NCBI GenBank assembly: GCA_023460995.1
Contig: JAEWOE010000002.1
Location: 77,809-141,808, forward strand
DNA length: 64,000 nucleotides
Direction of reading: 5' to 3'
Origin: Bacillota bacterium
GTDB lineage: Bacteria; Bacillota_I; Bacilli_A; RF39; UBA660
Below, piece after piece: positions 1,993 to 54,418 of this stretch. Numbering within the stretch: position 1 is the first letter of the stretch; each line of letters begins with the position of its first letter. The notes beneath the pieces are model-generated. The model worked only from the letters and a program-made list of their open reading frames with translations. It ran no database searches and had not been told where the DNA came from. Both the position numbers and the translations under genes were made by a program.

Positions 1993-2458
1993 TTTATTTG
2001 GACTAGCTGGGTGTAGTTCTAAGAAGGTAGAAGTTATAGAGGAAGAAATAGTTAAGCATACTATAATGACAGTAAAACAAGGTGAAGATATTATAATAAA
2101 CACTAATGATATAAATTCTAACGCAACTTACTATAATTATGAAATAGATGGATATATAATTCAAATATTTGCAGTAAAAGCATCTGATGGTACTGTAAGA
2201 ATAGCGTTTAATACATGTGGTGCATGTAACCCATCTCCTTCAGCTTATTTTGTCCAAAAAGGTGAGTATTTTGAATGCCAAAATTGTGGAAATAAATTCA
2301 AAATAGATGAGATTGGTTTAACAAATAGACCTGGATGTTTTCCAATAGGGATATTAGATGATAATAAAAATATAGATGGAGACAACATTACAATATCTAG
2401 TAGTTTTATAGAGACATATAAACAAAAATTCGAAACAATAAACATTTATGAAAACTAA
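1952..2458 (+). CDS. lipoprotein with double CxxC (zinc-ribbon / Fe-S-like) domain
   Basis: MKITIPLMFLLVISLFGLAGC lipoprotein signal. CGACN and CQNCG cysteine pairs. The track ORF starts at 1901, but the signal peptide begins at the in-frame ATG at 1952. Confidence 0.55.
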   Translation: MKITIPLMFLLVISLFGLAGCSSKKVEVIEEEIVKHTIMTVKQGEDIIINTNDINSNATYYNYEIDGYIIQIFAVKASDGTVRIAFNTCGACNPSPSAYFVQKGEYFECQNCGNKFKIDEIGLTNRPGCFPIGILDDNKNIDGDNITISSSFIETYKQKFETINIYEN

Positions 2459-2637
2459 GAATTTCTTTTTATATTAATATATTTATATTAATAAAAGATG
2501 TATAATAATCAGATATCTTAATTATCTTTAGTCTTGCAATTAGGTTTAATTTACAAAATATTAACTTATCTGAAACTAGTATTTTTCACAATTTTTGATA
2601 TTATAATACAAAAAAACCTTGTTTTACTTATTTTTTC

Positions 2638-2666
2638 TTGTACATTAACTTAAGTGGTGGTATAAT
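2638..2666 (+). promoter_or_regulatory. sigma-A type promoter for rpsU (TTGTAC-17-TGGTATAAT)
   Basis: -35 TTGTAC, 17 nt spacer, extended -10 TGGTATAAT, about 30 nt upstream of the rpsU start. Confidence 0.5.
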
Positions 2667-2695
2667 AATTCATAGTTAAGAAGGGAGGGATATTG

Positions 2696-2890
2696 ATGAC
2701 AAAAGTTCTAGTACGTAATGGTAACGTTGACGGTGCCTTGAGAATGGTTAAACAAAGAAATGCCAAAGATGGCCTCCTAAAAGCAGTTCGTGAAAGACAA
2801 GAAGGTTATATGAAACCCGGAGTTAAAAAAAGAATGGCTAAAAAAGAAGCTATTAAAAATGCTAAAAAGAATAGTAGAAAATACAGCTAA
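2696..2890 (+). CDS. rpsU: 30S ribosomal protein S21
   Basis: Small basic protein VRNGNVDGALRMVKQ...KPGVKKRMAKKEA typical of S21. GGGAGGG RBS. Confidence 0.9.
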   Translation: MTKVLVRNGNVDGALRMVKQRNAKDGLLKAVRERQEGYMKPGVKKRMAKKEAIKNAKKNSRKYS

Positions 2891-2930
2891 GAGTCATTAA
2901 GACTCTTTTTTATATAAAGGAGAATAAAAG

Positions 2931-3371
2931 ATGAGACAAACGATATTAGATGATATTATAAAAGCAATGAAGGAAAAAGATAAAGATACTTTATCAGTAC
3001 TTCGTATGGTAAAAGGTGCAATGCAATTAGAAGAAATAAATGTTAAGCATGAACTTAATGATGAAGAAATGACAAGAATTATATCTAAACAAATTAAAAC
3101 AAGAAAAGATTCTATAGTTGAGTTTGAAAAAGGAAATAGACAAGATCTTGTTGATGCTGTAAACTCTGAAATTACAATACTTGAAAAATATATGCCTGAA
3201 CAAATGAGTGAAGAAGATATATTAAAAGTAATAGATGAAGTATTCAGTAAAGTTAATCCAACTGGTCCTTCTGAAATGGGGAAAATTATGGGAATGATTT
3301 CTCCACTAGTAAAAGGAAAAGCAGATATGGGGCTTGTAAATAAATTGATAAAAGAAAGATTATCAAATTAA
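2931..3371 (+). CDS. yqeY: GatB/YqeY domain protein
   Basis: Conserved YqeY motifs (LSVLRMVKGA..., EYMPEQMSEEDI, MGKIMGMISPLVKGKADMGLVNKLIKERL). Canonical rpsU-yqeY pairing. Confidence 0.85.
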   Translation: MRQTILDDIIKAMKEKDKDTLSVLRMVKGAMQLEEINVKHELNDEEMTRIISKQIKTRKDSIVEFEKGNRQDLVDAVNSEITILEKYMPEQMSEEDILKVIDEVFSKVNPTGPSEMGKIMGMISPLVKGKADMGLVNKLIKERLSN

Positions 3372-3437
3372 AATATGTTTATACATATTTTTTTTAATTT
3401 TTTTAATGTATAATGTAAGAATAGGGTAGGGATAATT

Positions 3438-4673
3438 ATGGGCGAGCTATATGCGTTTAAACAAGATAAAAATAAATATGAATCACAAATAGGTATAGAA
3501 GAAAATGTTTTTAATAAACAAAAATTAATGAAGGAATATCAAGATAAAACTAAAAGGTATTTAGGGACGGCAATTAGTATTATCAATAAAAACTTTAATA
3601 TTAATTATTCTATGAATAAGGAAGCTGTAGGTATGACTGCAACTTTTCAGAAGATAAATACAATTGTTAGAAAAACAGATCAAGAGATCTCAATTGAAAT
3701 GGAACAATTAAGTAATCAAATACCAAATTTAGCGGTAAGCGATGATATCAAAGAAACAATTGAACTAGCTATAGAGATAGTTACAATTTATTGTACTAAC
3801 GGGGTTGAAAATTCAGCGGTTGCTTCAACTGCCGATATAAATGTTTTTGAAGATAATAAAGTAATAAATGAAACAAGGCTGAATCAAAATTCTGAAAGTG
3901 TTACCGAAAAACAAGATTCAAATATAGTTCAGGAAATTAATGAAAAAGTACCACCTTTAAAAAAAGACAGTCCCTTTATTTCATATAAAGTTAAACTAGG
4001 ATTATTAATAATACCAGTTGTATCATTATTTATGACTTTTGTGTTATTTATTATCCTAAAAGTTCTATCTAAATTGCCATTTTTCTCAAATATAATTGGT
4101 AGTGGAACTTCAAGTATGTTATATGTAATATTTTTCTATGGTTTATTATTCTTATTTTCATGGTTAGTAACCAGCTTTATCTCATCATTTATAAGTGGCA
4201 GAACAAATAATAAAATATCCTTTATGATATTGCCTTTTTCTTTGCTTATTTTATTAATAATTGTTTCAAAAATAGTTATAGATTATGTAACAGTAAAACA
4301 ATTACTAGATGTAGTATCATTATTATATATTAATGTTTATTATGCATGTGCCATTATAATACTATATACGTTTATGCCATTATTTTATATTTTATCAGTA
4401 TTCCAAAAGCATACCAAAACGAGTATAGTTGAATTTATTGATATAAGTATAATAATATATGTAGGTATTTTACCTGGAATAAAACATATATTAGAAGTCC
4501 TTAAAATAGATCAGTTTAAAGGTGTATTTAATGCATTATATAATTATCCAAAACAAAAAATTGTTTTTATTATATTAATAATTATTTGTATTTTATCTAA
4601 TATAATTTATTCTTTTATTAAATATAAAAAAGGTAGTAAAAGTAGTGAAAATATAGAAAGTAGTGAAGCATAA
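3438..4673 (+). CDS. hypothetical membrane protein (N-terminal soluble/coiled-coil region plus 6 or more TM helices)
   Basis: Long ORF with own extended -10 (TGTATAAT) and GGGTAGGGA RBS. Hydrophobic C-terminal two-thirds. Confidence 0.5.
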   Translation: MGELYAFKQDKNKYESQIGIEENVFNKQKLMKEYQDKTKRYLGTAISIINKNFNINYSMNKEAVGMTATFQKINTIVRKTDQEISIEMEQLSNQIPNLAVSDDIKETIELAIEIVTIYCTNGVENSAVASTADINVFEDNKVINETRLNQNSESVTEKQDSNIVQEINEKVPPLKKDSPFISYKVKLGLLIIPVVSLFMTFVLFIILKVLSKLPFFSNIIGSGTSSMLYVIFFYGLLFLFSWLVTSFISSFISGRTNNKISFMILPFSLLILLIIVSKIVIDYVTVKQLLDVVSLLYINVYYACAIIILYTFMPLFYILSVFQKHTKTSIVEFIDISIIIYVGILPGIKHILEVLKIDQFKGVFNALYNYPKQKIVFIILIIICILSNIIYSFIKYKKGSKSSENIESSEA

Positions 4674-4706
4674 AAGAAAGAAGTTTAACTTTCTTTTATT
4701 TTTTTA

Positions 4707-4736
4707 TTGACAAGTGTCACATACTACGCATATAAT
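4707..4736 (+). promoter_or_regulatory. promoter TTGACA-18-TATAAT overlapping an ACAAGTGT box (4710-4729)
   Basis: Consensus -35/-10 immediately upstream of the Nudix gene. Box ACAAGTGTCACATACTACGC is shared with two boxes at 5451-5520. Confidence 0.5.
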
Positions 4737-4755
4737 GTAATTGTAGGTGATAAAT

Positions 4756-5430
4756 ATGGAAGTTAAAAATCCATTATATAAAAATCAGGGTATACATGCT
4801 ATTTCTGCTATATTTACGGTAGACAAAGGAATTACTAAAGTACTACTGATAAAAAGGAATAATGAACCATTTAAAGGTATGTGGGCTTTAGTAGGCGGAG
4901 CTCTTTATAATAATGAAACTTTAGATCAAGGTATAAAAAGAGAGATAGAAGAGAAAATTGGTATTAATATTAAAAATATTGAAATGTTTGATATTTTTAG
5001 TAAGATCGATAGATCACCAGTGATGCGAATGATCGCTGTAGGATATATAGGAATTGTTGATTCATCAAAAGTTGAAGTTGTTAAAAAAACTGTAAAAACT
5101 AGTGATGCTGACTGGGTTCCAATTGATAAAATTGGAAAACTTGCTTATGACCATAATGAAATAATTAGTAAAGGAATAGAAGTTCTAAAGCAAAAAATAG
5201 TCAATACAGATATTTTGAAAAGTTTATATCCAGAAGGATTTACACTTCCAGAAATTCAAAAAACTTATGAAGCTATTTTGAGTAAGGAACTAGATAGAAG
5301 AAATTTTAGAAAGAAAATGCTTAGCTTAGATTTAATTTATGATACTGGTTTAGCAAAGAAGTTTGAGGGAACTAAACCAGCAAAAATATATAAGTTTAAA
5401 GAAAATAGAAAAAGTAAAAATGTATTTTAA
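4756..5430 (+). CDS. NUDIX hydrolase with NrtR-like C-terminal winged-helix domain (ADP-ribose pyrophosphatase / Nudix-related regulator family)
   Basis: Intact Nudix box GGALYNNETLDQGIKREIEEKIG. C-terminal FTLPEIQKTYEAIL...RRNFRKKM resembles NrtR DNA-binding domain. True start is ATG 4756 after AGGTGA (the track start 4747 is a GTG inside the RBS). Confidence 0.65.
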   Translation: MEVKNPLYKNQGIHAISAIFTVDKGITKVLLIKRNNEPFKGMWALVGGALYNNETLDQGIKREIEEKIGINIKNIEMFDIFSKIDRSPVMRMIAVGYIGIVDSSKVEVVKKTVKTSDADWVPIDKIGKLAYDHNEIISKGIEVLKQKIVNTDILKSLYPEGFTLPEIQKTYEAILSKELDRRNFRKKMLSLDLIYDTGLAKKFEGTKPAKIYKFKENRKSKNVF

Positions 5431-15038: not shown

Positions 15039-18000
15039 ATGAAGAAACTATTAAAAATAATATTATGTATGTCTATAATTCTTTCTAATTTTAGTCCTCT
15101 TTTTGTTAGTAAAGTTAAAGCAGCAGGAATTTATACTGTCGCGATTGCTTATGCTGATAAAGATGTTGATCAAGCTTCTTATGATACATATGATGCTGCA
15201 GTAACTGCTATGAATGCAATTAATTCAAATGATCAAGCGGTAGCAATTATAAAAAATAGTAGTGGACGTATAATAAATGCCAAGTATGCTATAGCTGAAA
15301 TAGATTATCATAATTATATAAAAATAACTACTAGGGATGAGGGTGATAAGTATTTATATTCTACTCCTCAAGATGCAGTAAGTGCTTCTCCAAACAATGC
15401 TAATTTCTTAGCAGCAACAGCCTCAACTTGGGGATCTGACTCAGCTTTTCTAGATTATAATAATACATATCAAGCGGTAAAAGTTAAAATAAGTGGTTTA
15501 ACTGGTTGGATTGCACTATGGGATGTAAGTATAATTCCTATATCAAGATATTATGAATTAAATAATCCTACTAATTATCCAAATAATCGTGCAACAATTA
15601 AGGCCTTAAAAGATGGTGTTAGATTAAGAGCCACTCCGTCTTTAAGTGGGGTAGAAATTGGAAAAGTTTCTGTTACTGGAGCAAGTTACAGGTATTATCC
15701 ATCTGGAACAACATTAGCAGAAGGCTATACATGGTACAAAGTACAATATGATGCTGATACAGTTGGTTATTTTGCTGATAATGGAACGTTCTTTTCAGTA
15801 ATAGATACGTTCAAAAATGATACATATTATTATGTTTATAATAATGTTTTATATCATCAAATACATATGGGTTATGCATTTCCTGAATCAAATACAACTT
15901 TAGGAGATGCACCTTATTACTATGATACAAATGGTAAACATTATCTACTTAGTAATTCTAGTGGTGAAAGAACAGCGGCAAATATTCGTTATTATAGTTT
16001 TGACAGTAACTATTTTTATTCATCTTTTACAAAAATGATTGATGATTATAGATTAGGTGTATATACAAATGCTGTTAATGCAAGTTATCCATATTATCCA
16101 TATTTTATGTATTTGCCAAGTCATGCTAAAACTAATTATGTAGCTGGAACTTTTGATAACTTAATAACAAAGGCTGGATATTCAAGTTTTCCAGTTAATC
16201 CAAAAACTTATGTTAATCCTAGTACAGGAACTTTTTATTCAGGAAGTGCACCAGCAAATCAATCAATGATGTATGGTATAGGATCAACATTAATAAGTGT
16301 TGCTAATACCTATGGTGCTAATGCGCTTACGCTTTACTCAGTAGCAAAAGTTGAGTCAGGTTTTGGAACAAGTGCTATATCATTTTATAAGAATAATTTA
16401 TATGGTATGGGAGCAAGTGATGATAATCCGTTTGGAAATGCAACAACATATAATACAGTAGGAGACTCTGTTTTAGATTATGCTAGGCAAATAGGGCAAA
16501 CTTCATATGCTAATATATTTGATTACAGGTATAGGGGTACTCATTTAGGGAACAAACTAAGTGGTCAAAATATATATTATGCAACTGATCCATATAGTGG
16601 TGAGGCTAAAGGTGGAAGTGCTTACTGGGTTGATAGTGCCAGTGGTAAAATAGATAATAATGCTAATACTTTAGGTGTTACGAGAAGTACTTCAGCGGCT
16701 ACTAAAATCTATTCTGAGCCTAACTCATCAAGTACTGTTATTTATGAAACTAAAAATTACTCTTCAAATAAGGTAATTACTAATATGCCGTTTATTGTAA
16801 CTGACAAAATTAATGTAATAGAGAATGGTCAATCAGCAGTATATTATAAAGTTTATACGGATGTTTCATTAACATCTACAAGACTTCTTACATCAGATAC
16901 AAATGTTATGTATAATTTTGAAAATTGTTATGGATATATTAAAGAAGCTGATTTATATGTAGCAAATAATCAACCTGTAATATCAGCTAGTAATAGAACT
17001 GTAAAACAATATGATACTGTTAATTTATTAACAGGTGTTACAGCTACTGACTTAGAGGATGGCATTTTAACAGGAGATGTTACTGTTTCTAATAATGGTG
17101 GTTATGATATTGAAAAACCTGGAACTTATGTAGTAACTTATACTGTTACAGACAAATCAAAATATAGTGTTTCTAAGGAGGCTACTATTACCGTTGAACC
17201 TAGTGGTAGACCAACAATAGTTGCACCAGATATTGAAACACCACAATTTAAGCCGTTTGACTCTAAAAAAGGTGTTTCTGTACAAGATATAGATGCCGCA
17301 GATCAAAATCTAATTAATAATGTGACTGTAAGTGGAACAGTCGATGTTACAAAAATAGGGGAATATACTTTAACATATACTGTAATTGATACTTATGGTT
17401 CAACTGATACTAAAACTAGAAAAGTTACGGTAGTTGCTAATGAAAAACCGGTTATTAATGCAATAAATCTAACGACATATAAAGGGCAATCATTTAATCC
17501 AATGACAGGAGTTACAGCTACTGATAAAGAAGATGGTGATGTATCAAATTCTATTTCTTACACAGGTTCAGTTGATATGTCAACAATAGGTACATATGAG
17601 CTTACTTATACTGCTAAAGATTTAGATAATCAAGAATCTACAAAAACTATTACCATAACAGTAGAAGAAAAAAAATATACATCAGCTACAGGTATGTTTT
17701 ATTTAAGTAATTTAACTTACAACGAGAACACAACAAAAATTGATTTTACTGGTTATTTAGTAATAAAAGGTATGAATAATACAGTAAGTACTGATATTTC
17801 ATATGACATAATATTTGAAAATCAAAACAACGGTAATACAACTATAAAATCTTTATCAAGATTAACTAGTAATGTTCCATTTGCCGTACCAAACTCTGGT
17901 GGTTTTGATTATTCAGGATCTTGGTTTAAAGAATCACTTAATTTAACAGATTTACCAAGTGGTGATTACACCGTTTATGTAAGAGCAAGAAGTGGTGATT

Positions 18001-18629
18001 ATGAAGCTAAAGTACTATTAAAGAATGAGTATTTTAACACTAAAGTAGCACGCAAATTCACTATTGGTACATCAGGATATCAATTTAGAATTAATTATTA
18101 TAATAGATCTTTACCACTTGAATTATTTGTTAGAAAAAATGGACTAATATCAAGTGTCAATAATCCAACAATCGATAATATGTATAACCAAGTTTATTCA
18201 ATAAGTTTAAGTGGTACAAAGCTTATATTAAAAGCATCTTCTCATAATGTTCAAGGTAATTATGCATCTAGTCAAAATATTGAAAGAGATATTTTATTTG
18301 AGAACGTTGATACATTAGAAATTGCTAAAACAGTTAATGTTGGTGCAATAACAAATGGACCATATAAAGTTAACTTAAAAGTTAGTGATGGTTATGATAA
18401 AACAAAGGTATGGTATTACACTGGTGATAATGGAATTGATTTAGCTGATCTTCCAAAAGGTAAATACTCTATTATTGTTAGAACTAAAGCTGGTTCTATT
18501 GATGATTATGGTGAACTATATGACGTATTATATATGAACATCGATCAGTCACAAAAAATTGGTGATAAAACAATATCTATAAAACGAAATAAAGATATAC
18601 GATATCGTATTGAAATAACTGTAGAATAA
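15039..18629 (+). CDS. secreted cell-wall hydrolase: SH3b-like, N-acetylglucosaminidase (LytD/FlgJ-like), three Ig-like (DUF5011-type) repeats and a C-terminal beta-rich region
   Basis: Signal peptide. AKVESGFGTSAISFYKNNLYGMGA glucosaminidase motif. Three repeats of P(V/T)I...TATD.EDG...GTY.LTYT.D pattern. Confidence 0.75.
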   Translation: MKKLLKIILCMSIILSNFSPLFVSKVKAAGIYTVAIAYADKDVDQASYDTYDAAVTAMNAINSNDQAVAIIKNSSGRIINAKYAIAEIDYHNYIKITTRDEGDKYLYSTPQDAVSASPNNANFLAATASTWGSDSAFLDYNNTYQAVKVKISGLTGWIALWDVSIIPISRYYELNNPTNYPNNRATIKALKDGVRLRATPSLSGVEIGKVSVTGASYRYYPSGTTLAEGYTWYKVQYDADTVGYFADNGTFFSVIDTFKNDTYYYVYNNVLYHQIHMGYAFPESNTTLGDAPYYYDTNGKHYLLSNSSGERTAANIRYYSFDSNYFYSSFTKMIDDYRLGVYTNAVNASYPYYPYFMYLPSHAKTNYVAGTFDNLITKAGYSSFPVNPKTYVNPSTGTFYSGSAPANQSMMYGIGSTLISVANTYGANALTLYSVAKVESGFGTSAISFYKNNLYGMGASDDNPFGNATTYNTVGDSVLDYARQIGQTSYANIFDYRYRGTHLGNKLSGQNIYYATDPYSGEAKGGSAYWVDSASGKIDNNANTLGVTRSTSAATKIYSEPNSSSTVIYETKNYSSNKVITNMPFIVTDKINVIENGQSAVYYKVYTDVSLTSTRLLTSDTNVMYNFENCYGYIKEADLYVANNQPVISASNRTVKQYDTVNLLTGVTATDLEDGILTGDVTVSNNGGYDIEKPGTYVVTYTVTDKSKYSVSKEATITVEPSGRPTIVAPDIETPQFKPFDSKKGVSVQDIDAADQNLINNVTVSGTVDVTKIGEYTLTYTVIDTYGSTDTKTRKVTVVANEKPVINAINLTTYKGQSFNPMTGVTATDKEDGDVSNSISYTGSVDMSTIGTYELTYTAKDLDNQESTKTITITVEEKKYTSATGMFYLSNLTYNENTTKIDFTGYLVIKGMNNTVSTDISYDIIFENQNNGNTTIKSLSRLTSNVPFAVPNSGGFDYSGSWFKESLNLTDLPSGDYTVYVRARSGDYEAKVLLKNEYFNTKVARKFTIGTSGYQFRINYYNRSLPLELFVRKNGLISSVNNPTIDNMYNQVYSISLSGTKLILKASSHNVQGNYASSQNIERDILFENVDTLEIAKTVNVGAITNGPYKVNLKVSDGYDKTKVWYYTGDNGIDLADLPKGKYSIIVRTKAGSIDDYGELYDVLYMNIDQSQKIGDKTISIKRNKDIRYRIEITVE

Positions 18630-44843: not shown

Positions 44844-45587
44844 ATGAAGGTAGTTTATCATGGCAGTAGTTTTTCTAAATTAGAAACAATTACACCGCAT
44901 CAAAGTATTCATGGAAATTATGTATATGCAACAAATAATAAAGTTATTGCTATTATAATGGCTCATAAATATGGTTCAGATTTCACTTATAGTTTTGGTA
45001 GAGAAAATAGGAAAGAACCATATAATTTAGTTGAAAGAATTCCTGGTGCTTTTGATATAATGTATAAAAGTTCAGCTTCTATTTATAGTTTAGACGGTAG
45101 TAATTTTACAAAAATCAACACAAGTTTTAACGAAATAGTAAGTACTGAAGAAGAAAAAGTTTTAGGAGAAGAAAAAATAACTAATTTATTAAAAGTAATT
45201 AATAATTTAGAAAAAGAAAACGTAATTAAAGTATATAGATATCCAAATAAACCAGAAGGTTTTAAAAGAGATGGTTCAGATTTAATAGAAAAACTGGCAG
45301 CAGGGCAAGATTTTGAAACGATAAGAAGTAGGTATATATCTTTGCTTAGTTATTATCCTGAACTACTTGATAAAGTAAATGATAAATTATTTAGTATTAA
45401 CAAATCTTTTCCAGGGTTTAATACAAGTGATTTATTTAATATATTAGATTATTGTATTGCAAGATATAATCAAGATCCTAAAAATGAACCTTTCTTAAAA
45501 TTAAAACTTAATAAGTTTACAAAGTTATATCCAATATATTTTAAGGATATTAATTTAGTTGATATATGTAATAAAAAAACAATTTAA
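44844..45587 (+). CDS. hypothetical protein
   Basis: GTAGGTGAAG RBS; no recognisable domain. Confidence 0.5.
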   Translation: MKVVYHGSSFSKLETITPHQSIHGNYVYATNNKVIAIIMAHKYGSDFTYSFGRENRKEPYNLVERIPGAFDIMYKSSASIYSLDGSNFTKINTSFNEIVSTEEEKVLGEEKITNLLKVINNLEKENVIKVYRYPNKPEGFKRDGSDLIEKLAAGQDFETIRSRYISLLSYYPELLDKVNDKLFSINKSFPGFNTSDLFNILDYCIARYNQDPKNEPFLKLKLNKFTKLYPIYFKDINLVDICNKKTI

Positions 45588-45603: not shown

Positions 45604-45906
45604 TTATTTTATATAATCGCCAACTTTATAGTTGTAGTAATTAACTGGAGACTCGTATGCATAATACACATTTTTTTTAGGTAATATTACCTTATATGGT
45701 TTTATATTTTTATATATATATAATATCTTATTATTTTTATCTGTCATATGAACATCTATATTAATAAACATGAACATAGTATGAATACTATTACATCTTG
45801 GAAAGCACAATATATAATTAACTTTTCTTTTAAACATTAGTCCAAAGAATCTTGAAAAAAAACTTTTACAAATAATAACATCTAACTTATTCATATTCTT
45901 CACCAA
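45604..45906 (-). CDS. DUF192-family protein
   Basis: FFGLMFKRK...CFPRCNSIHTMFMFINIDV matches conserved DUF192 core (GLMF...CNSIHTFFM...IDV). Divergent from the flp operon. Confidence 0.55.
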   Translation of the reverse strand: MVKNMNKLDVIICKSFFSRFFGLMFKRKVNYILCFPRCNSIHTMFMFINIDVHMTDKNNKILYIYKNIKPYKVILPKKNVYYAYESPVNYYNYKVGDYIK

Positions 45907-45996: not shown

Positions 45997-46191
45997 ATGA
46001 ATAATAAAGGACAAGCTTTAGTAGAGTATTTATTAATAATTGCTTTAATTAGTGTTATTGTAGTAAGTCTAGTTAAGTTACTAGGAGGATACTTACAAGA
46101 TTCTGTTACCAAGTCATCTTGTAATTTAATTGACAAAGTTTATGTAGCAGGGGAAAAACCAGGCGAAGGTTACTGCGCAGAATCAGAATAG
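45997..46191 (+). CDS. flp: Flp/Fap-family type IVb (Tad) pilin
   Basis: 64-aa protein, MNNKG/QALVEYLLIIALISVIVV Flp motif (G-x4-EY) then hydrophobic helix. Confidence 0.7.
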   Translation: MNNKGQALVEYLLIIALISVIVVSLVKLLGGYLQDSVTKSSCNLIDKVYVAGEKPGEGYCAESE

Positions 46192-46292: not shown

Positions 46293-46667
46293 ATGATAAA
46301 AGATATAAGGAATAGCAAAGGGCAAGCTTTAGTAGAATTTGTTCTTGTAATGCCTATTTTTATCTTTATTATTATGGCTATGATAGATTTAGGAAATATT
46401 ATATATAAAAAGTATAATCTAGAAAATACACTTGATACGGTAGTAGAATTATATAGGCAAGGAGAAAGTCAAAAGATGGCAGCCTATGCATCAGTTGAAA
46501 ATATTGATTTGGATATTTCTTCTGTTAGTACTGATTTAACTAAAGTATCTGTTACGAAAACTATAAATATAATAACACCAGGATTAAATAATATACTCGG
46601 CAAAGATTATACCTTATCAGTAGATAGAACTATTTTTTTTGAAAAGGAAACGTCTATAAATGAATGA
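46293..46667 (+). CDS. TadE-like pseudopilin
   Basis: KGQALVEFVLVMPIFIFIIMAMIDLGNII TadE N-terminal signature. Confidence 0.65.
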   Translation: MIKDIRNSKGQALVEFVLVMPIFIFIIMAMIDLGNIIYKKYNLENTLDTVVELYRQGESQKMAAYASVENIDLDISSVSTDLTKVSVTKTINIITPGLNNILGKDYTLSVDRTIFFEKETSINE

Positions 46668-47052
46668 TAGAAAAGGACAAGTTTTAGTTGCCTTTGTCTT
46701 ATTAATACCAGTAATAATAATGCTGCTGGCGTTAATAGTAGATGTTGGTTTTCTATATGTAGAAAAAAGAAATACTGATAATGTGGTAAGGGATATAACA
46801 AATTATGGGCTTGATAACTTAAATTTAGAAAAAGATATATTACAAGGAAAGATAACTGAGTTAATTAATGCTAATTTAGACGATATACAAAATCTTAATA
46901 TAAATATTGATACTAACAGTGTTGAAATAGATATAACAAGAAATAAGCAAAGTATATTTTCAAATGTATATAAAAAAGCAAGTTATAAAATAACTTCAAA
47001 TTATATTGGTAACATTAATAATTCTGTAAATGATGTAAGGAAGGAGTCATAG
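46660..47052 (+). CDS. TadE/TadF-like pseudopilin
   Basis: KGQVLVAFVLLIPVIIMLLALIVDVG; overlaps the previous gene. Confidence 0.6.
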   Translation: MNDRKGQVLVAFVLLIPVIIMLLALIVDVGFLYVEKRNTDNVVRDITNYGLDNLNLEKDILQGKITELINANLDDIQNLNINIDTNSVEIDITRNKQSIFSNVYKKASYKITSNYIGNINNSVNDVRKES

Positions 47053-47053
47053 T

Positions 47054-47881
47054 ATGGCATTAAAAAAGGCTAAAATATTAACAATAACATCTGTAAGTGG
47101 AGGAACTGGAAAGACAACTACTGCTCTTTGCGTAGCAGGAACTTACTCAACTCTTGGAAAAAAAGTTTTAGTAATAGATTTAGATTTATATACAGGGACT
47201 ATTGCTGCTGCTTTAAACTTAGATGTTAAATCAGACATGTTTATCTTAGTTAATGATTTAAATAATAATAAATTTAAAGGATTAGATGAATATGTAACAA
47301 GTTACAGCGAAAATATTGATATTTTACCAGCTACTAAAGATCCTAGATATGCTAATAAAATTAATGCTAGTTATTTACAACTGGTTTTTGATAAATACTG
47401 TAATAAATATGATTTGATTGTAGTTGATACAGCTGATGATTTTTCACCTTTTAATTTAGTTACTTTCGATTATAGTGACTTAATTATATACGTTATTAAT
47501 AACGATGCAGTAAATTTAAAAAACATGCGTACTATGGTGTCAATATTTAAAGATATGGGTCTTACTAAATATAGAATATTCCTTAATGAGGCAAATAGTA
47601 TTCATAAAAATTATTTCACAAAAAATGATATGAAGAATATTATGAAAGCTAATATAGATTATACTGTTACAAACAGATTCTTTATTAAAAATATAGATAA
47701 ATATTTCTTAGATGGAGTAATTTTGACTTTAGATAAAACAATTAGATCAAAGTATAAAAAAGATATTAAAGAGTTTGAAGAAATTGCTAAGGTTATTATT
47801 GGTGAAACTGAGAAGAATGATAAAAAAGTTGAAAAAGTAAGAGTTTCTAATGACAAAGTAATGAAAGGGGAAAATGAATAG
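47054..47881 (+). CDS. TadZ/CpaE-like ParA/MinD-family ATPase (pilus assembly localisation factor)
   Basis: ILTITSVSGGTGKTTTALCVA degenerate deviant Walker A, VIDLDL, DLIVVDTADD Walker B. Confidence 0.7.
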   Translation: MALKKAKILTITSVSGGTGKTTTALCVAGTYSTLGKKVLVIDLDLYTGTIAAALNLDVKSDMFILVNDLNNNKFKGLDEYVTSYSENIDILPATKDPRYANKINASYLQLVFDKYCNKYDLIVVDTADDFSPFNLVTFDYSDLIIYVINNDAVNLKNMRTMVSIFKDMGLTKYRIFLNEANSIHKNYFTKNDMKNIMKANIDYTVTNRFFIKNIDKYFLDGVILTLDKTIRSKYKKDIKEFEEIAKVIIGETEKNDKKVEKVRVSNDKVMKGENE

Positions 47882-49205
47882 TATGAAGAGTTTTACAGAA
47901 GAATTCCAAGTAAGTATTAAAAAGAATAATTATGTTGAAACTTCCGATTACGAAACATTTCCTAACAAAGTATTACTTGACGAACTTAGAAATAAAATTA
48001 TTCAAAATTTAATTGATAATCGTACCTCATCAAGTGGTGCTCTAGATACTTTTATCAAAAGACAAATAGATGCTACTATTGAAGGATATGATTTAACAGG
48101 AGTTGAGATATCTTATATCTATAACATGATAGATAATGAGATTAATGGATGTGGACCATTAACGGAACTTATGGAAGATCCTAATATAACTGAAATAATG
48201 GTTAATGGAATAGACCAAATTTATATTGAAATTGATGGACGAGTTAGTAAAGATGATAGTGTTTCTTTTATAAATGATGATCATATTATAAGAACAATAC
48301 AGAGAATGATTCAGCCTATCGGTAGAACAATTGATGCTGCTAATCCTATGGTTGACGCAAGACTTTCTGATGGTTCTAGACTTAATGCTATTATAGCGCC
48401 ACTTGCTATTAATGGACCAACTATTACTATTCGTAAGTTTAAGGAAGATTTAGTTTCTATAGATGATTTTTTAAGAACAGGAACATTAACTCCTTATATG
48501 GCTAGATTCTTGGAAGCATGTGTTAAAGCTAAATTAAATATTATTATATGTGGTGGTACTGGTTCTGGTAAAACAACACTTCTTAATGTTTTATCCTCAT
48601 TTATCGGGCAAGATGAACGTATTGTAACAATAGAGGATGCAGCTGAACTTAGATTAAAACAACCACATGTTGTTTCGCTAGAAACAAGACTTGCAAATTA
48701 TGAAGGACAAGGTGCTATAACAATTAGGGATTTAGTTATTAATTCCCTTCGTATGAGACCTGATCGTATTATAGTTGGCGAGTGTCGTGGTGGTGAGGCT
48801 TTTGATATGCTTCAGGCCATGAATACAGGACATTCAGGTAGTTTAACAACTATGCATGCTAATGGGCCTATTGACACTTTAAATAGGCTAGAAACATTAA
48901 TTTTAATGTCTGGTATGGAAATACCAGTTAAAGCTATTCGTGAATATATTGAGAAAGCAATAAATGTCGTGGTTCAAACTGAAAGATTTTCTGATGGACG
49001 TAGAAGAGTAGTGGATATTTCTGAGGTTGTTGGATTTAAAGATGATATGATTGAATTAAAACAAATATTTGGATTTAAGCAAACAGGAAGACTTGATAAC
49101 GGTGATGTTGACGGTGAGTTTATTCAATCTAAACATGTGCCAAAAGTATATGAAACAATGAAAGCCTTTGGTGTAGACAGTATAAAAGTTATTTTTGAAA
49201 AATAG
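47874..49205 (+). CDS. tadA: TadA/CpaF-family secretion ATPase
   Basis: IIICGGTGSGKTTLLNVL Walker A, ERIVTIEDAAEL, GHSGSLTTMHAN His-box. Confidence 0.9.
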   Translation: MNSMKSFTEEFQVSIKKNNYVETSDYETFPNKVLLDELRNKIIQNLIDNRTSSSGALDTFIKRQIDATIEGYDLTGVEISYIYNMIDNEINGCGPLTELMEDPNITEIMVNGIDQIYIEIDGRVSKDDSVSFINDDHIIRTIQRMIQPIGRTIDAANPMVDARLSDGSRLNAIIAPLAINGPTITIRKFKEDLVSIDDFLRTGTLTPYMARFLEACVKAKLNIIICGGTGSGKTTLLNVLSSFIGQDERIVTIEDAAELRLKQPHVVSLETRLANYEGQGAITIRDLVINSLRMRPDRIIVGECRGGEAFDMLQAMNTGHSGSLTTMHANGPIDTLNRLETLILMSGMEIPVKAIREYIEKAINVVVQTERFSDGRRRVVDISEVVGFKDDMIELKQIFGFKQTGRLDNGDVDGEFIQSKHVPKVYETMKAFGVDSIKVIFEK

Positions 49206-49213
49206 GTGATAGT

Positions 49214-50707
49214 ATGATGAATAATAATGGTTTTAGTCTGTATGGAACTTTGACTAATCAGGATATAAATCTTACCTTTACACCTCCTATAAACTTATAT
49301 TCTTTTGAATATACGGTATATAAGAACGGTGGTATATATATAAAAGGAACAGGTTCTAATAACCCAATTGGTTTTAATTTTACTGCTACAGGTACATACA
49401 CTGTCATAGTTACAATGACAGATATTACAGGACATAATACTGTAACTAGTCCTCAATATATTGTTGATAAAGAGAGTCCTATTATTACAGTTTCAAAAGA
49501 TAATATTCAAATAGAAGAAGGAAAAAGCTTAAATGCACTTTCAAATATAGTAGTAACTGATAATTATGATAAAGATTTAAGTAAAGAAGTAACAACAAAT
49601 TATGATGAACTAGATTTTGCTACTATAGGTGAAAAAAAGTTGATATATTCTGTAAGTGATAAAGCAGGCAATAATACTTCTAAAACCATCTATGTTAATG
49701 TTGTAAACGGTGTAGATCCTTATGTAGTATTTATTCAGTGTGGGATAGTAATAGGTTTAATTATATTTATAATTGCTATATTAAAATACAGACATTCAGT
49801 TAAAATAGAAAACCGCATTGCTAAATTTTCTGTAGAATCACTTGAGGATGACCAAATTTCATTATTTGATAAGCTATCACTAGTATTGACTAAATATATT
49901 AAAAAGGGAAGTAATTTATTTAATAAATCGGCTTTTTTAAAAAACTACTCAAAACATTTTGAAAAATATACTTCATTATATAATAGTGAATTAACTAGTA
50001 TGGACCTTGTTTCTATAAAGATTACATTTGGTTTGATTTTCGTGCTTGTTTGTATCTTATCACTGGCAATTAAATCAAGAGTATTACCAGTATATGAATG
50101 GATAATACCTTTCTTTGCCGGGATATTTATAGTTGATATATATTATATAATAAAGTATAAATTTTATCGTAGTAAGATTGAGAATGACTTATTGCAGGCA
50201 ATTATTATAATGAATAATGCTTTTAAATCTGGACGAAGTATTAGTCAAGCTATTGACCTTGTAACTACTGAACTAGAAGGACCTATAGCGAAAGAATTCA
50301 AGAAAATATATGTAGAATTATCCTTTGGTTTAGATTTAAATACTGTATTTAAGAGGTTTGCTGATAGAGTTAATGTTGAAGAAGCATCATATTTAACAGC
50401 GTCACTTACTATTTTAAATAAAACAGGTGGTAACATAGTAAAAGTATTTGATGCTATAGAAAAGTCATTATTTAGTAAAAAGAAATTAAAATTAGAACTA
50501 AATGCATTAACAAGTTCTTCAAAAGTAATAAAGAATATTTTATCAATAGTTCCACTAATTTTCTTTCTTTTAATTAGTTTTATTGATTCAAACTATTTTA
50601 CTGTTTTCTTTAATACACAAATAGGTATTATATTATTTATTCTTATATTAATACTTTATGTATCATATATATTAGTAGTAAATAAAATTATGAAAGTTAG
50701 GATGTGA
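49214..50707 (+). CDS. tadB: TadB-like platform protein (T2SS-F domain) with about 170-aa N-terminal Ig-like (DUF5011-type) domain
   Basis: N-terminal PIITVSKDNIQIEEGKS...VTDNYDKDL...IGEKKLIYSVSDKAGN Ig-like repeat like those in the 15039 hydrolase. TM helix. T2SSF-like LLQAIIIMNNAFKSGRSISQAI...LEGPIAKEF. Confidence 0.75.
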   Translation: MMNNNGFSLYGTLTNQDINLTFTPPINLYSFEYTVYKNGGIYIKGTGSNNPIGFNFTATGTYTVIVTMTDITGHNTVTSPQYIVDKESPIITVSKDNIQIEEGKSLNALSNIVVTDNYDKDLSKEVTTNYDELDFATIGEKKLIYSVSDKAGNNTSKTIYVNVVNGVDPYVVFIQCGIVIGLIIFIIAILKYRHSVKIENRIAKFSVESLEDDQISLFDKLSLVLTKYIKKGSNLFNKSAFLKNYSKHFEKYTSLYNSELTSMDLVSIKITFGLIFVLVCILSLAIKSRVLPVYEWIIPFFAGIFIVDIYYIIKYKFYRSKIENDLLQAIIIMNNAFKSGRSISQAIDLVTTELEGPIAKEFKKIYVELSFGLDLNTVFKRFADRVNVEEASYLTASLTILNKTGGNIVKVFDAIEKSLFSKKKLKLELNALTSSSKVIKNILSIVPLIFFLLISFIDSNYFTVFFNTQIGIILFILILILYVSYILVVNKIMKVRM

Positions 50708-50711
50708 TAAA

Positions 50712-51488
50712 GTGAGTAAGACTAGAATTAATTATAATTACAATGAGGAAAAGATAAGAAACTTACGTGAAAGAAATAAGAAAACAGCAGTAGAATTTGA
50801 TAACAGTATTGTTAATAAAGTTTTTAGAAAAAGTGATATAAAATTAGTAGCAAATAGAATAGCTATGATGGGAAGAACTAAACTTACTGTTAGCTCTTTC
50901 TTAAATTTTAGAATTATGTTAAGCATGTGTGTATTTGTCTTGACACTAACTTTTTCAAAATATAGTTACGTTTTAGCGCCACTTTCAGCAATTGCTGTTT
51001 ATTATGGTAGTTATTATGTTCTAATTTCTAATCCTATAAAAAAAAGAATTTCAAAGTTAGATCATGAAGCACTAAATTTTTTTGAAATTCTTACCCTTAC
51101 TTTAGAATCAGGACGTAATTTAGAAAATTCACTTGAAATAACAGTAGACAATGTTGAATCTGAATTATCGGATGAATTTAGAAAAACTCTATTAGAAATT
51201 AAATTTGGTAAATCACTAATTGAATCATTAGATGGGATGAAACAAAGAATACCATCTGAAACAATTAATAATATTATATTAAATATGACTCAAACAAGCA
51301 TCTTTGGTAGTAATATTTTGGATACTATGAATAATCAAATAGATTTTTTAAGAGATAAACAATTATTAGAAGTAAAAGAAAGAATGAATAGATTACCCAA
51401 TAGAATTAGTATTATATCGGTGTTATTTATTGTTCCACTTATATTACTTTTGGTTTTAGGACCTTTTCTAGTAAACTTTTTGGGTTGA
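50712..51488 (+). CDS. tadC: TadC-like platform protein (T2SS-F domain)
   Basis: FEILTLTLESGRNLENSLEITV...FGKSLIESL T2SSF motifs, 3 TM helices. Confidence 0.7.
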   Translation: MSKTRINYNYNEEKIRNLRERNKKTAVEFDNSIVNKVFRKSDIKLVANRIAMMGRTKLTVSSFLNFRIMLSMCVFVLTLTFSKYSYVLAPLSAIAVYYGSYYVLISNPIKKRISKLDHEALNFFEILTLTLESGRNLENSLEITVDNVESELSDEFRKTLLEIKFGKSLIESLDGMKQRIPSETINNIILNMTQTSIFGSNILDTMNNQIDFLRDKQLLEVKERMNRLPNRISIISVLFIVPLILLLVLGPFLVNFLG

Positions 51489-52849: not shown

Positions 52850-52913
52850 GTATTCTTTTATTTACTTAAAATTAATAATATTGTATAATAATTATAGGAT
52901 GATAGGTGAATGT

Positions 52914-54002
52914 ATGATGTATGTTTTTAGAAACGAAAAAGGATTTACATTAGCGGAACTGTTAGGTGTTATTACAATTTTGGCGATAATAGCATTAATA
53001 ACAGTACCGCTTGTTAATAAATATGTATTAAGTAGTAGGCAAAAAGCCTATGATGTAGAAATTACTACATTAAAAAAAGCTGCACAACAGTGGTTTACAA
53101 GAAATTCTACTTCCGTTGTTTTCGATGGAAACAGTTTTTATGCACTAGATTTAGAAGAATTGAAACAGAGTGAGTTTTTATCTGATCAACCAATATATAA
53201 TCCATTAAACCCTGATGAAGAAATAACCGGATGTGTTATGATTAAAAAAAATGATAGTATTTATAGTTATGAATATAGTGCAACATGCACTGGCACATTT
53301 AATGTATATGTTAATGGTACAGCAGTATATTTTAATCCTGTAACTGGAGCAAAATGTACAGTAGGTGAAGCTGTGAGCACAACCGGAACAAAAACAGGAT
53401 GCATGAAATGGTATACATTTAATGATAGTTCAGAAAAAGATACTGTTAATTTAATATTAGATCATAATACTACGGCATTAGTAGCATGGAATTCTACTGG
53501 AAGTAATATAAGTGGTCCAACAAATGGGCTTACGCAACTTCAAACTGACACTAGTGCTTGGGTAGGAGTACCAACAAGAACAGATAGTTATAGTGTAAGT
53601 AATGGAACAGCTACATATACTATAAACTATAATACTTATAAAGCACGACTAATAACGGCAGCAGAAATTGCGACAATAACAGGAAACAGTAGTTTTAATG
53701 AGTCAAATAGTGGAGCACTTACTTGGTTTTATTTAGATAGTAATAATCAAACTCAAACAGCCACTTCAACTGGAACTAGTAATTATGATTGGTTATTTGA
53801 TTATACATACTACTGTACAGATTATGGGTGTAGTATTGCTGATTCAAGTACAAGTGGTTACTGGACAGCCACATCTGTTCCATTTTCTTCAAGAAGTACT
53901 TGGATTGTACGTCGTAACGGGTACTTGCATAACCTTGAAGTAGAAAATACAATTAACTACGGTATTCGCCCAGTTATAACTATTTCAAAATCTAGTCTTT
54001 AA
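52914..54002 (+). CDS. prepilin-type (type IVa-like) pseudopilin/minor pilin, Ser/Thr-rich
   Basis: MMYVFRNEKG/FTLAELLGVITILAIIALI class III signal (Gly-1, Glu+5). AGGTGA RBS; track ORF start 52881 is upstream. Confidence 0.65.
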   Translation: MMYVFRNEKGFTLAELLGVITILAIIALITVPLVNKYVLSSRQKAYDVEITTLKKAAQQWFTRNSTSVVFDGNSFYALDLEELKQSEFLSDQPIYNPLNPDEEITGCVMIKKNDSIYSYEYSATCTGTFNVYVNGTAVYFNPVTGAKCTVGEAVSTTGTKTGCMKWYTFNDSSEKDTVNLILDHNTTALVAWNSTGSNISGPTNGLTQLQTDTSAWVGVPTRTDSYSVSNGTATYTINYNTYKARLITAAEIATITGNSSFNESNSGALTWFYLDSNNQTQTATSTGTSNYDWLFDYTYYCTDYGCSIADSSTSGYWTATSVPFSSRSTWIVRRNGYLHNLEVENTINYGIRPVITISKSSL

Positions 54003-54028
54003 AAAAAGCAATTAATGAGGTGTTTAGT

Positions 54029-54418
54029 ATGAAAAATAAGGGATTTACATTAACTGAGTTAATAGCGGTAATTGTCCTACTTGGAATCATTGCTTTAATT
54101 GCTATTCCAGTTATAAATGGAACAATAGTTAATTCAAAAAATAAGGCATATAATACACAAGTAAGTACAATTGAAAACACAGCCAAAAAGTGGGGAGTAG
54201 AGAATACGGCATTACTACCTAATGATGAAAATGAGTGTAAAGTTTCAATCGTAGAGTTAATAGCGCAAGGATTTATAGAAGATGATGAAATTATAGATCC
54301 ACGAGATGATTCTAAAATGAATGGTAGTATTGAAGTAAGTTATTCTGTCACTAGTAAAACATATCATTATGTTTATAATGAAACAGTTGATGTGGCTGTA
54401 CCTAATTGTATAAAATAA
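54029..54418 (+). CDS. type IV pilin-like protein (PilA/ComGC-like)
   Basis: MKNKG/FTLTELIAVIVLLGIIALIAIPV prepilin N-terminus, about 125 aa. GAGGTG RBS. Confidence 0.75.
   Translation: MKNKGFTLTELIAVIVLLGIIALIAIPVINGTIVNSKNKAYNTQVSTIENTAKKWGVENTALLPNDENECKVSIVELIAQGFIEDDEIIDPRDDSKMNGSIEVSYSVTSKTYHYVYNETVDVAVPNCIK

Follow-up and report, generated by a model that had tools for sequence, protein, structure and literature searches.

Why should TadB, a platform protein of a pilus machine, begin with immunoglobulin (Ig)-like domains of a type otherwise met in secreted proteins, on which side of the membrane would these lie, and what would they do there? The question is raised by a window of 64,000 nucleotides from a Bacillota bacterium (contig JAEWOE010000002.1), in which a first-pass annotation had proposed, at 49214-50707 of the plus strand, a TadB homologue whose first ~170 residues form an Ig-like (DUF5011-type) domain without a signal peptide, displayed outside the cell. 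Of the core parts of type IV filament machines, the platform proteins are the least understood. The simplest such machines are considered to be the Tad systems of monoderms, which lack RcpC/CpaB; how these hold together, and how they traverse the wall with no alignment proteins to help, is an open question (PMC6916266). In the literature searched, neither TadB nor any other platform protein is described as having an Ig-like ectodomain, and the only name that NCBI gives these proteins is ‘type II secretion system F family protein’.

The Tad locus and the platform core

The gene is one unbroken reading frame of 497 aa with a ribosome binding site, GGTGA, 5 nt before its ATG, in a window of about 27% G+C. 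It belongs to a compact Tad/Flp (type IVc pilus) set, all on the plus strand, in the order Flp, TadE, TadE, TadZ, TadA, TadB, TadC. The Flp-type prepilin (45997-46191, 64 aa) scores 21 bits with Flp_Fap (E 3e-4) against a cut-off of 32.2, and its translation carries the motif KG/QALVEY. The two overlapping TadE-like pseudopilin genes (46293-46667 and 46660-47052) are both above the Pfam TadE cut-off, at 42.8 and 27 bits, and are followed by a TadZ/CpaE-like ParA/MinD ATPase (47054-47881; Pfam AAA_31/CbiA/MipZ), a TadA/CpaF-type ATPase (47874-49205; T2SSE, 200.9 bits) whose stop codon lies 8 nt from the TadB ATG and, after TadB, a TadC-like second platform paralogue of 258 aa (50712-51488; T2SSF, 59.6 bits). 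At this locus there are no genes for a secretin, RcpC/CpaB, TadD or TadG, and neither TadB nor any other gene of the locus has a Pfam match to the SAF or RcpC/CpaB beta-clip domains; separate alignment proteins (CpaB/RcpC; PilN/O) are absent from this minimal locus, whose gene set is that described for monoderm Tad systems (PMC6916266).

Its neighbours, with TadC, a CpaF/TadA ATPase and Flp and TadE pilin genes alongside, bear out the identification as TadB, as does Pfam T2SSF (PF00482), which is present as a single domain at aa 333-454 (44.8 bits, cut-off 25.2), is matched in all 39 homologues compared and has the expected GspF/PilC-like helical bundle fold. No NCBIfam model scores above its cut-off with the protein; the weak NCBIfam match to the CPR pilus protein PamR (E 0.057) is not significant. 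In a phage collection a single weak match to T2SSF was all that turned up, so no phage connection emerges.

From its first membrane helix onwards the protein is a TadB of familiar build. TM1 (aa 171-189, VVFIQCGIVIGLIIFIIAI; 49724-49780), a proposed reverse (N-out) signal-anchor, aligns with the N-terminal TM of canonical TadB and leads into a cytoplasmic K/R-rich linker, helical in the AlphaFold2 (AF2) model (aa 190-267; 49781-50014). Then come a TM2-TM3 hairpin with an outer loop of 4-6 residues (aa 268-313; 50015-50152), recognized from hydropathy and from AF2 helices at 262-286 and 293-338, the cytoplasmic T2SSF bundle (aa 314-438; 50153-50527) and lastly, as judged from hydropathy and charge, TM4, a 12-residue outer loop, TM5 and the basic C-tail KIMKVRM before the stop codon (aa 439-497; 50528-50707), all of these being on the plus strand. 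The order of helices is that of two proteobacterial TadB proteins, from Burkholderia pBTU (328 aa, TM1 at aa 11-29) and R. etli (317 aa, TM1 at aa 3-21), with both of which aa 171-497 align helix for helix. With canonical TadB/CpaG it thus has in common one T2SSF domain and the succession of TM1, basic linker, TM2/3 hairpin, bundle and TM4/5, and it is likewise encoded between TadA/CpaF and TadC/CpaH. The difference is at the other end: canonical TadB, of ~320 aa, has 2-10 residues before TM1, whereas here TM1 is far from the extreme N-terminus and is preceded by ~167 residues that make up two Ig-like domains. Binding of the ATPase and a role in Flp pilus assembly, as expected of the TadB/CpaG-type class, are putative functions here.

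TadC of the clade has a peculiarity of its own. Burkholderia TadC has an N-terminal TM at aa 1-19, whereas the TadC of the window and of 80 related loci has no such helix, its first hydrophobic segment beginning at aa 30 or later (median 35), so that TadB alone gives the platform an N-out anchor.

Several features of the surroundings merit record. The Flp-like pilin has two cysteines, C42 and C60, in its short C-terminal part, suggestive of a disulfide, though the TadB Ig tail has almost no cysteine (0-1 per protein). Adjoining the pilin gene is a divergent DUF192 (COG1430) gene (45604-45906, minus strand), a pairing that recurs in the 1.49-Mb genome OW818670.1 (DUF192 at 1702-2001 of that locus), and a DUF192 homologue is found in 28 of the 80 related loci; a functional tie to the Tad locus is possible. 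In OW818670.1 the TadE genes are parted by three unrelated genes, TP_methylase, TGT and FmrO (2373-5077), from the 66-aa ORF that occupies the place of Flp, so the pilin gene is separable from the assembly genes in some members. Flanked by Obg and the DUF192 gene is a 247-aa ORF (44844-45587, plus strand) for which Pfam gave no significant match and which has a homologue in only two of the 80 loci. Downstream, after MurC, are two N_methyl proteins with a class III signal peptide, KGFTL-E (52881-54002 and 54020-54418, plus strand), one of them unusually large at 373 aa with a Ser/Thr/Asn-rich C-terminal part; to judge from their sequences they belong to a second filament system, as pilins of type IVa/Com-like rather than Flp type, and they are present in just 9-11 of the 80 loci. 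Over all frames of the window the prepilin peptidase (A24) motif G.GD.[KR] turns up only by chance, within a MutL-like ORF; the peptidase for the Flp and TadE-like pilins (all KG/Q) and for the N_methyl pilins is encoded elsewhere.

Two Ig-like domains and their relatives

The first-pass annotation was right about the fold and probably about the DUF5011 type, but where it saw one domain the AF2 model has two. Computed for aa 1-168 with 34 homologues (pLDDT 91.7, pTM 0.75), it consists of beta-sandwiches at aa ~7-84 and ~88-164. The membrane-distal domain (aa 1-83; 49214-49462, plus strand), modelled with pLDDT >90, is PKD/Big-like, has weak PKD_4/Big_13 matches and is the fastest-evolving part of the protein. 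The second (aa 84-165; 49463-49708, plus strand) is assigned to the Bact_surface_Ig-like type (PF16403, formerly DUF5011) and has the Ig-like beta-sandwich fold proper to that type. PF16403 is matched at aa 96-163 with E 2.7e-5 and 24.5 bits (26.2 for the N-terminal piece alone), just below the 27-bit cut-off; it is matched at E <= 1e-3 in 37 of the 39 homologues, the best reaching 9.5e-9. Conserved in this second domain are D116-x-x-D119 and D149-x-A-G-N153, which are general PF16403 family residues and hold no pointer, as far as sequence goes, to a pilin, peptidoglycan or host ligand.

What company do such domains otherwise keep? Their nearest solved structures are Ig-like modules of a secreted chitinase (chitinase 60), bacillolysin Big_3, the mucinase ZmpB, InlK and the PKD domain of ColH, and a Foldseek search with the full model returned those Ig-like classes again together with Rib, SraP, cadherin and RbmA. 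A search of the PDB with the single sequence found nothing significant. The family profile matched residues 458-612 of C. perfringens ZmpB, spanning both domains, at E 1.1e-15. Among 1.84 billion representative proteins the N-terminal profile had 21,852 matches, headed by giant proteins with up to 39 copies, and this dominance of multi-repeat giants marks the domain type as a very common surface repeat. All of these relatives, whether by sequence or by structure, are extracytoplasmic, and the structure prediction for which the annotation had called thus comes out on its side, with closest solved relatives that are modules of secreted or surface proteins. The PF16403/DUF5011, Big_3 and PKD modules of ZmpB, chitinase 60 and bacillolysin have the same fold and a detectably related sequence; their hosts, however, are signal-peptide-bearing soluble or wall-bound proteins, often with long arrays, whereas in TadB the Ig modules head a polytopic membrane protein that has no signal peptide.

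One relative is encoded in the window itself. The annotation had remarked on three repeats of the same type in a secreted hydrolase at 15039, and the ORF in question (15039-18629, plus strand, 1196 aa) does have a signal peptide, a Glucosaminidase domain (PF01832) and three PF16403 stretches at aa ~640-875 (95.9 bits), to which the TadB N-terminus has 31% identity (BLASTP, E 3e-9). It is a relative of the Ig domain, not part of the pilus machine. Its long uncharacterized C-terminal region (aa ~880-1196) looks internally repeated.

Constancy of the fusion, topology and export

Is the fusion of these domains to a platform protein a fixed feature? A search of 5.8 billion proteins yielded more than 120 clusters of ~500 aa with 97-100% query coverage and 44-91% identity, most of them already annotated with PF16403 and PF00482, and a scan in which each GTDB species was represented by a single genome turned up 299 genomes that encode a relative. 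The locus counts given here rest on 80 loci kept from that scan, the survey being one of TadB relatives within the clade of the window. In every one of the 80 the match runs from query position 1-17 through to 485-497 and the TadB ORF, of 496-558 aa, is intact, so that the orthologue comparison asked for by the annotation finds the fusion kept throughout. Its judgement that the architecture is unusual stands with respect to canonical TadB, but within this clade the architecture is the rule. The neighbours are conserved too (TadA upstream in 78/80, TadC in 80/80, TadZ in 76/80, MurC downstream in 69/80), with TadC from -4 to +6 nt away from TadB. TadA ends from -14 to +33 nt from the TadB start in 76 of 78 loci, which leaves no upstream coding room for a signal peptide. 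An exact copy of the protein is present on four metagenomic contigs. A shorter variant, P0033 (394 aa), was set aside as a fragment cut at both ends. The relatives are on record as MAGs of uncultured gut bacteria under the labels Bacilli, Tenericutes, Mollicutes or Mycoplasmatota, among them Candidatus Pelethosoma and some circular genomes (1.2-1.5 Mb); they are taken to be an RF39-like lineage. For 64 closely related pairs dN/dS is typically ~0.2 in the first Ig domain, ~0.1 in the second and 0.03-0.14 in the core, which signifies purifying selection on both Ig domains with the distal one, only ~36% identical among homologues, freest to change.

Hydropathy, the distribution of charge and the nature of the domains were the guides to topology. 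The protein has five hydrophobic segments (171-189, 268-286, ~293-313, 439-457 and 470-488). The peak 19-residue Kyte-Doolittle mean is 3.05 in TM1 and a mere 0.81 in aa 1-165, and the first 40 residues contain no hydrophobic stretch in any of the 39 homologues (10-residue maximum 1.79); an N-terminal signal peptide of the sort that marks a Sec-dependent secreted or surface protein is lacking, just as the annotation had maintained. Averaged over the same 39, net charge is -10.6 for the N-tail (range -19 to -2, acidic in all), +4.5 for the 15 residues past TM1, where the KYRHSVK pointed out earlier is indeed found, +9.3 for the linker, +4.9 for the T2SSF region, +3.5 for the C-tail and about 0 for the two short outer loops. 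In the AF2 model TM1 and TM3 run unbroken into cytoplasmic helices (169-204 and 293-338), which puts the Ig end of TM1 opposite the T2SSF bundle, and it is established for the family that this bundle faces the cytoplasmic ATPase (PMC10191384, PMC11300603). With five segments, a strong positive flank, an acidic N-tail and a cytoplasmic T2SSF, N-out is the sole consistent arrangement, so the positive-inside argument of the annotation has gained in weight; the Ig domains are predicted to be extracellular.

Such an arrangement asks much of the export machinery. In E. coli N-tail export is favoured by net negative charge, with long tails needing Sec/YidC help, and the classic bacterial case is ProW with an N-tail of ~100 residues. 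Export of a two-domain N-tail of ~167 residues without a signal peptide is demanding and at the long end, and as folding of the tail in the cytoplasm would block export, it would have to stay unfolded until then.

A collar, an anchor or something else?

That we are dealing with a true TadB bearing an extracytoplasmic tandem Ig module seems to us very probable. The account that we favour, and consider probable, has a CpaG-type TadB serving a minimal monoderm Tad/Flp machine, with the exposed residues before TM1 replaced by a two-Ig module of ~167 residues. The N-tail, acidic as it is, would be translocated after its synthesis, with TM1 as a reverse (N-out, type III) signal-anchor, and the tandem Ig arm, ~5 residues from TM1, would be left standing on the outer face of the membrane. 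The Tad platform has been modelled, for Caulobacter, as a trimer of TadB-TadC heterodimers below a TadA hexamer (PMC11300603, PMC12307814, PMC13170226), and if that holds here three arms would surround the exit of the Flp filament. They could then serve as a built-in extracytoplasmic collar or anchor by which the nascent pilus and its TadE-like priming pilins are guided or stabilized, the platform is propped against the cell wall, or both, and so stand in for separate alignment proteins (CpaB/RcpC; PilN/O). This specific collar or anchor role is put forward tentatively and is somewhat doubtful. The contact with the cell wall or the pilus base that the annotation had suggested is likewise hypothetical. 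Going further, one may speculate that the acidic motifs of the second Ig domain bind Ca2+, in which case folding would be confined to the outside. The whole combination, an alignment or stator module that ties TadB-TadC to the wall or encircles the filament and that gets there by signal-peptide-less export of a ~167-residue N-tail, perhaps with Ca2+-dependent folding, we deem unlikely. An arm fixed to the wall would, moreover, get in the way of a platform that turns while the pilus is being built, as some models have it.

What else could these domains be? The thought that they are an artefact, with two genes merged by assembly or sequencing error, a wrong start chosen or a signal-peptide-bearing N-terminal exon missed, has nothing but the unusual architecture to recommend it and is effectively refuted. 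The single ORF recurs in all 80 loci of independent assemblies, the circular genomes included, in the >120 protein clusters and, identically, on the four contigs, and both Ig domains are under purifying selection. The annotation had conceded that an internal start near TM1 could betray a separate upstream gene, but there is no in-frame ATG, GTG or TTG there and no methionine between aa 69 and 261, hence no internal start from which a separate ‘normal’ TadB could be made, and upstream the end of TadA is as close as described. A cytoplasmic location, with an N-in or never translocated tail acting on TadA, TadZ or prepilins from the inside, has somewhat more to be said for it, given that a signal peptide is wanting, that long N-tails are hard to export and that, by our reckoning, ~200 residues would be made before TM1 leaves the ribosome. 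Yet an N-in TM1 would place the K/R-rich linker and T2SSF outside, contrary both to the charge bias and to the established location of the fold, and so hydrophobic a segment as TM1 would not be left unembedded in the membrane; the uniform acidity of the N-tail and the extracytoplasmic habit of all the relatives likewise speak against it, and we rate it very improbable.

A rival of a different kind accepts the N-out topology and changes the job: the arm would attach to a polymer of the wall, or to a wall enzyme through the latter's Ig repeats, the glucosaminidase at 15039 being an example, and so open or mark a passage through peptidoglycan, or else would be a short-range adhesin or receptor. 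The kinship of the second Ig domain with the three repeats of that secreted enzyme in the same genome fits this, as does the occurrence of the structural relatives as modules in adhesins and in enzymes that act on glycans, and the faster evolution of the first domain is what an exposed partner-facing surface might be expected to undergo. The identity to the hydrolase repeats is only ~30%, however, so the relationship is old and generic; Ig modules in enzymes usually serve as spacers, neither a carbohydrate-binding nor a catalytic module is attached here, and an extended two-Ig arm, estimated from the size of Ig domains at ~7-8 nm, is short for an adhesin. This job, too, we think unlikely, though not to the degree of a cytoplasmic tail.

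For the favoured account, a TadB with an outward-facing Ig module, there are instructive parallels. In diderm Tad machines CpaB/RcpC provides a membrane-anchored extracytoplasmic beta-rich module round the pilus above the platform (PMC12307814, PMC13170226), the role proposed here for the Ig arms, and CpaB is seen as an alignment ring around the CpaG/CpaH trimer (PMC13170226, PMC12307814, PMC11300603). It is a separate protein, though, with a SAF/RcpC beta-clip fold and a dodecameric ring that docks to the secretin, whereas the arm is Ig-like in fold, and the likeness is a functional analogy only. The archaeal proteins FlaF and FlaG (ArlF/ArlG) offer beta-sandwiches held outside the cell on one membrane helix, in a type IV filament machine of a single-membrane organism, and by binding the S-layer they tie the archaellum to the wall (PMC4425475). 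PilO of the type IVa pili of a monoderm, S. sanguinis, is an inner-membrane assembly part with a large extra extracytoplasmic part that has been speculated to aid wall crossing or anchoring (PMC6916266). PilO is of another protein family and another pilus class, and its extra part is C-terminal to an N-in anchor and so is exported conventionally. Seen against all three, it is most economical to suppose that in this clade a module of like purpose has become part of TadB.

The advance would be an incremental one, the Tad machine itself being standard and Ig-like modules common add-ons. Even so, with regard to how monoderm Tad pili get through the wall without alignment proteins, a TadB with its own outside-facing module, found in 80 of the 80 loci examined from among 299 gut species, is a concrete candidate. 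It is also a convenient natural substrate for studying export of a long N-tail without a signal peptide and, if the topology is true, its ~167-residue tail would be one of the longest known in bacteria, in a natural and widespread case. Lastly, for a gut clade that is abundant but uncultured, the Ig arm would supply a lineage-specific marker exposed on the cell surface.
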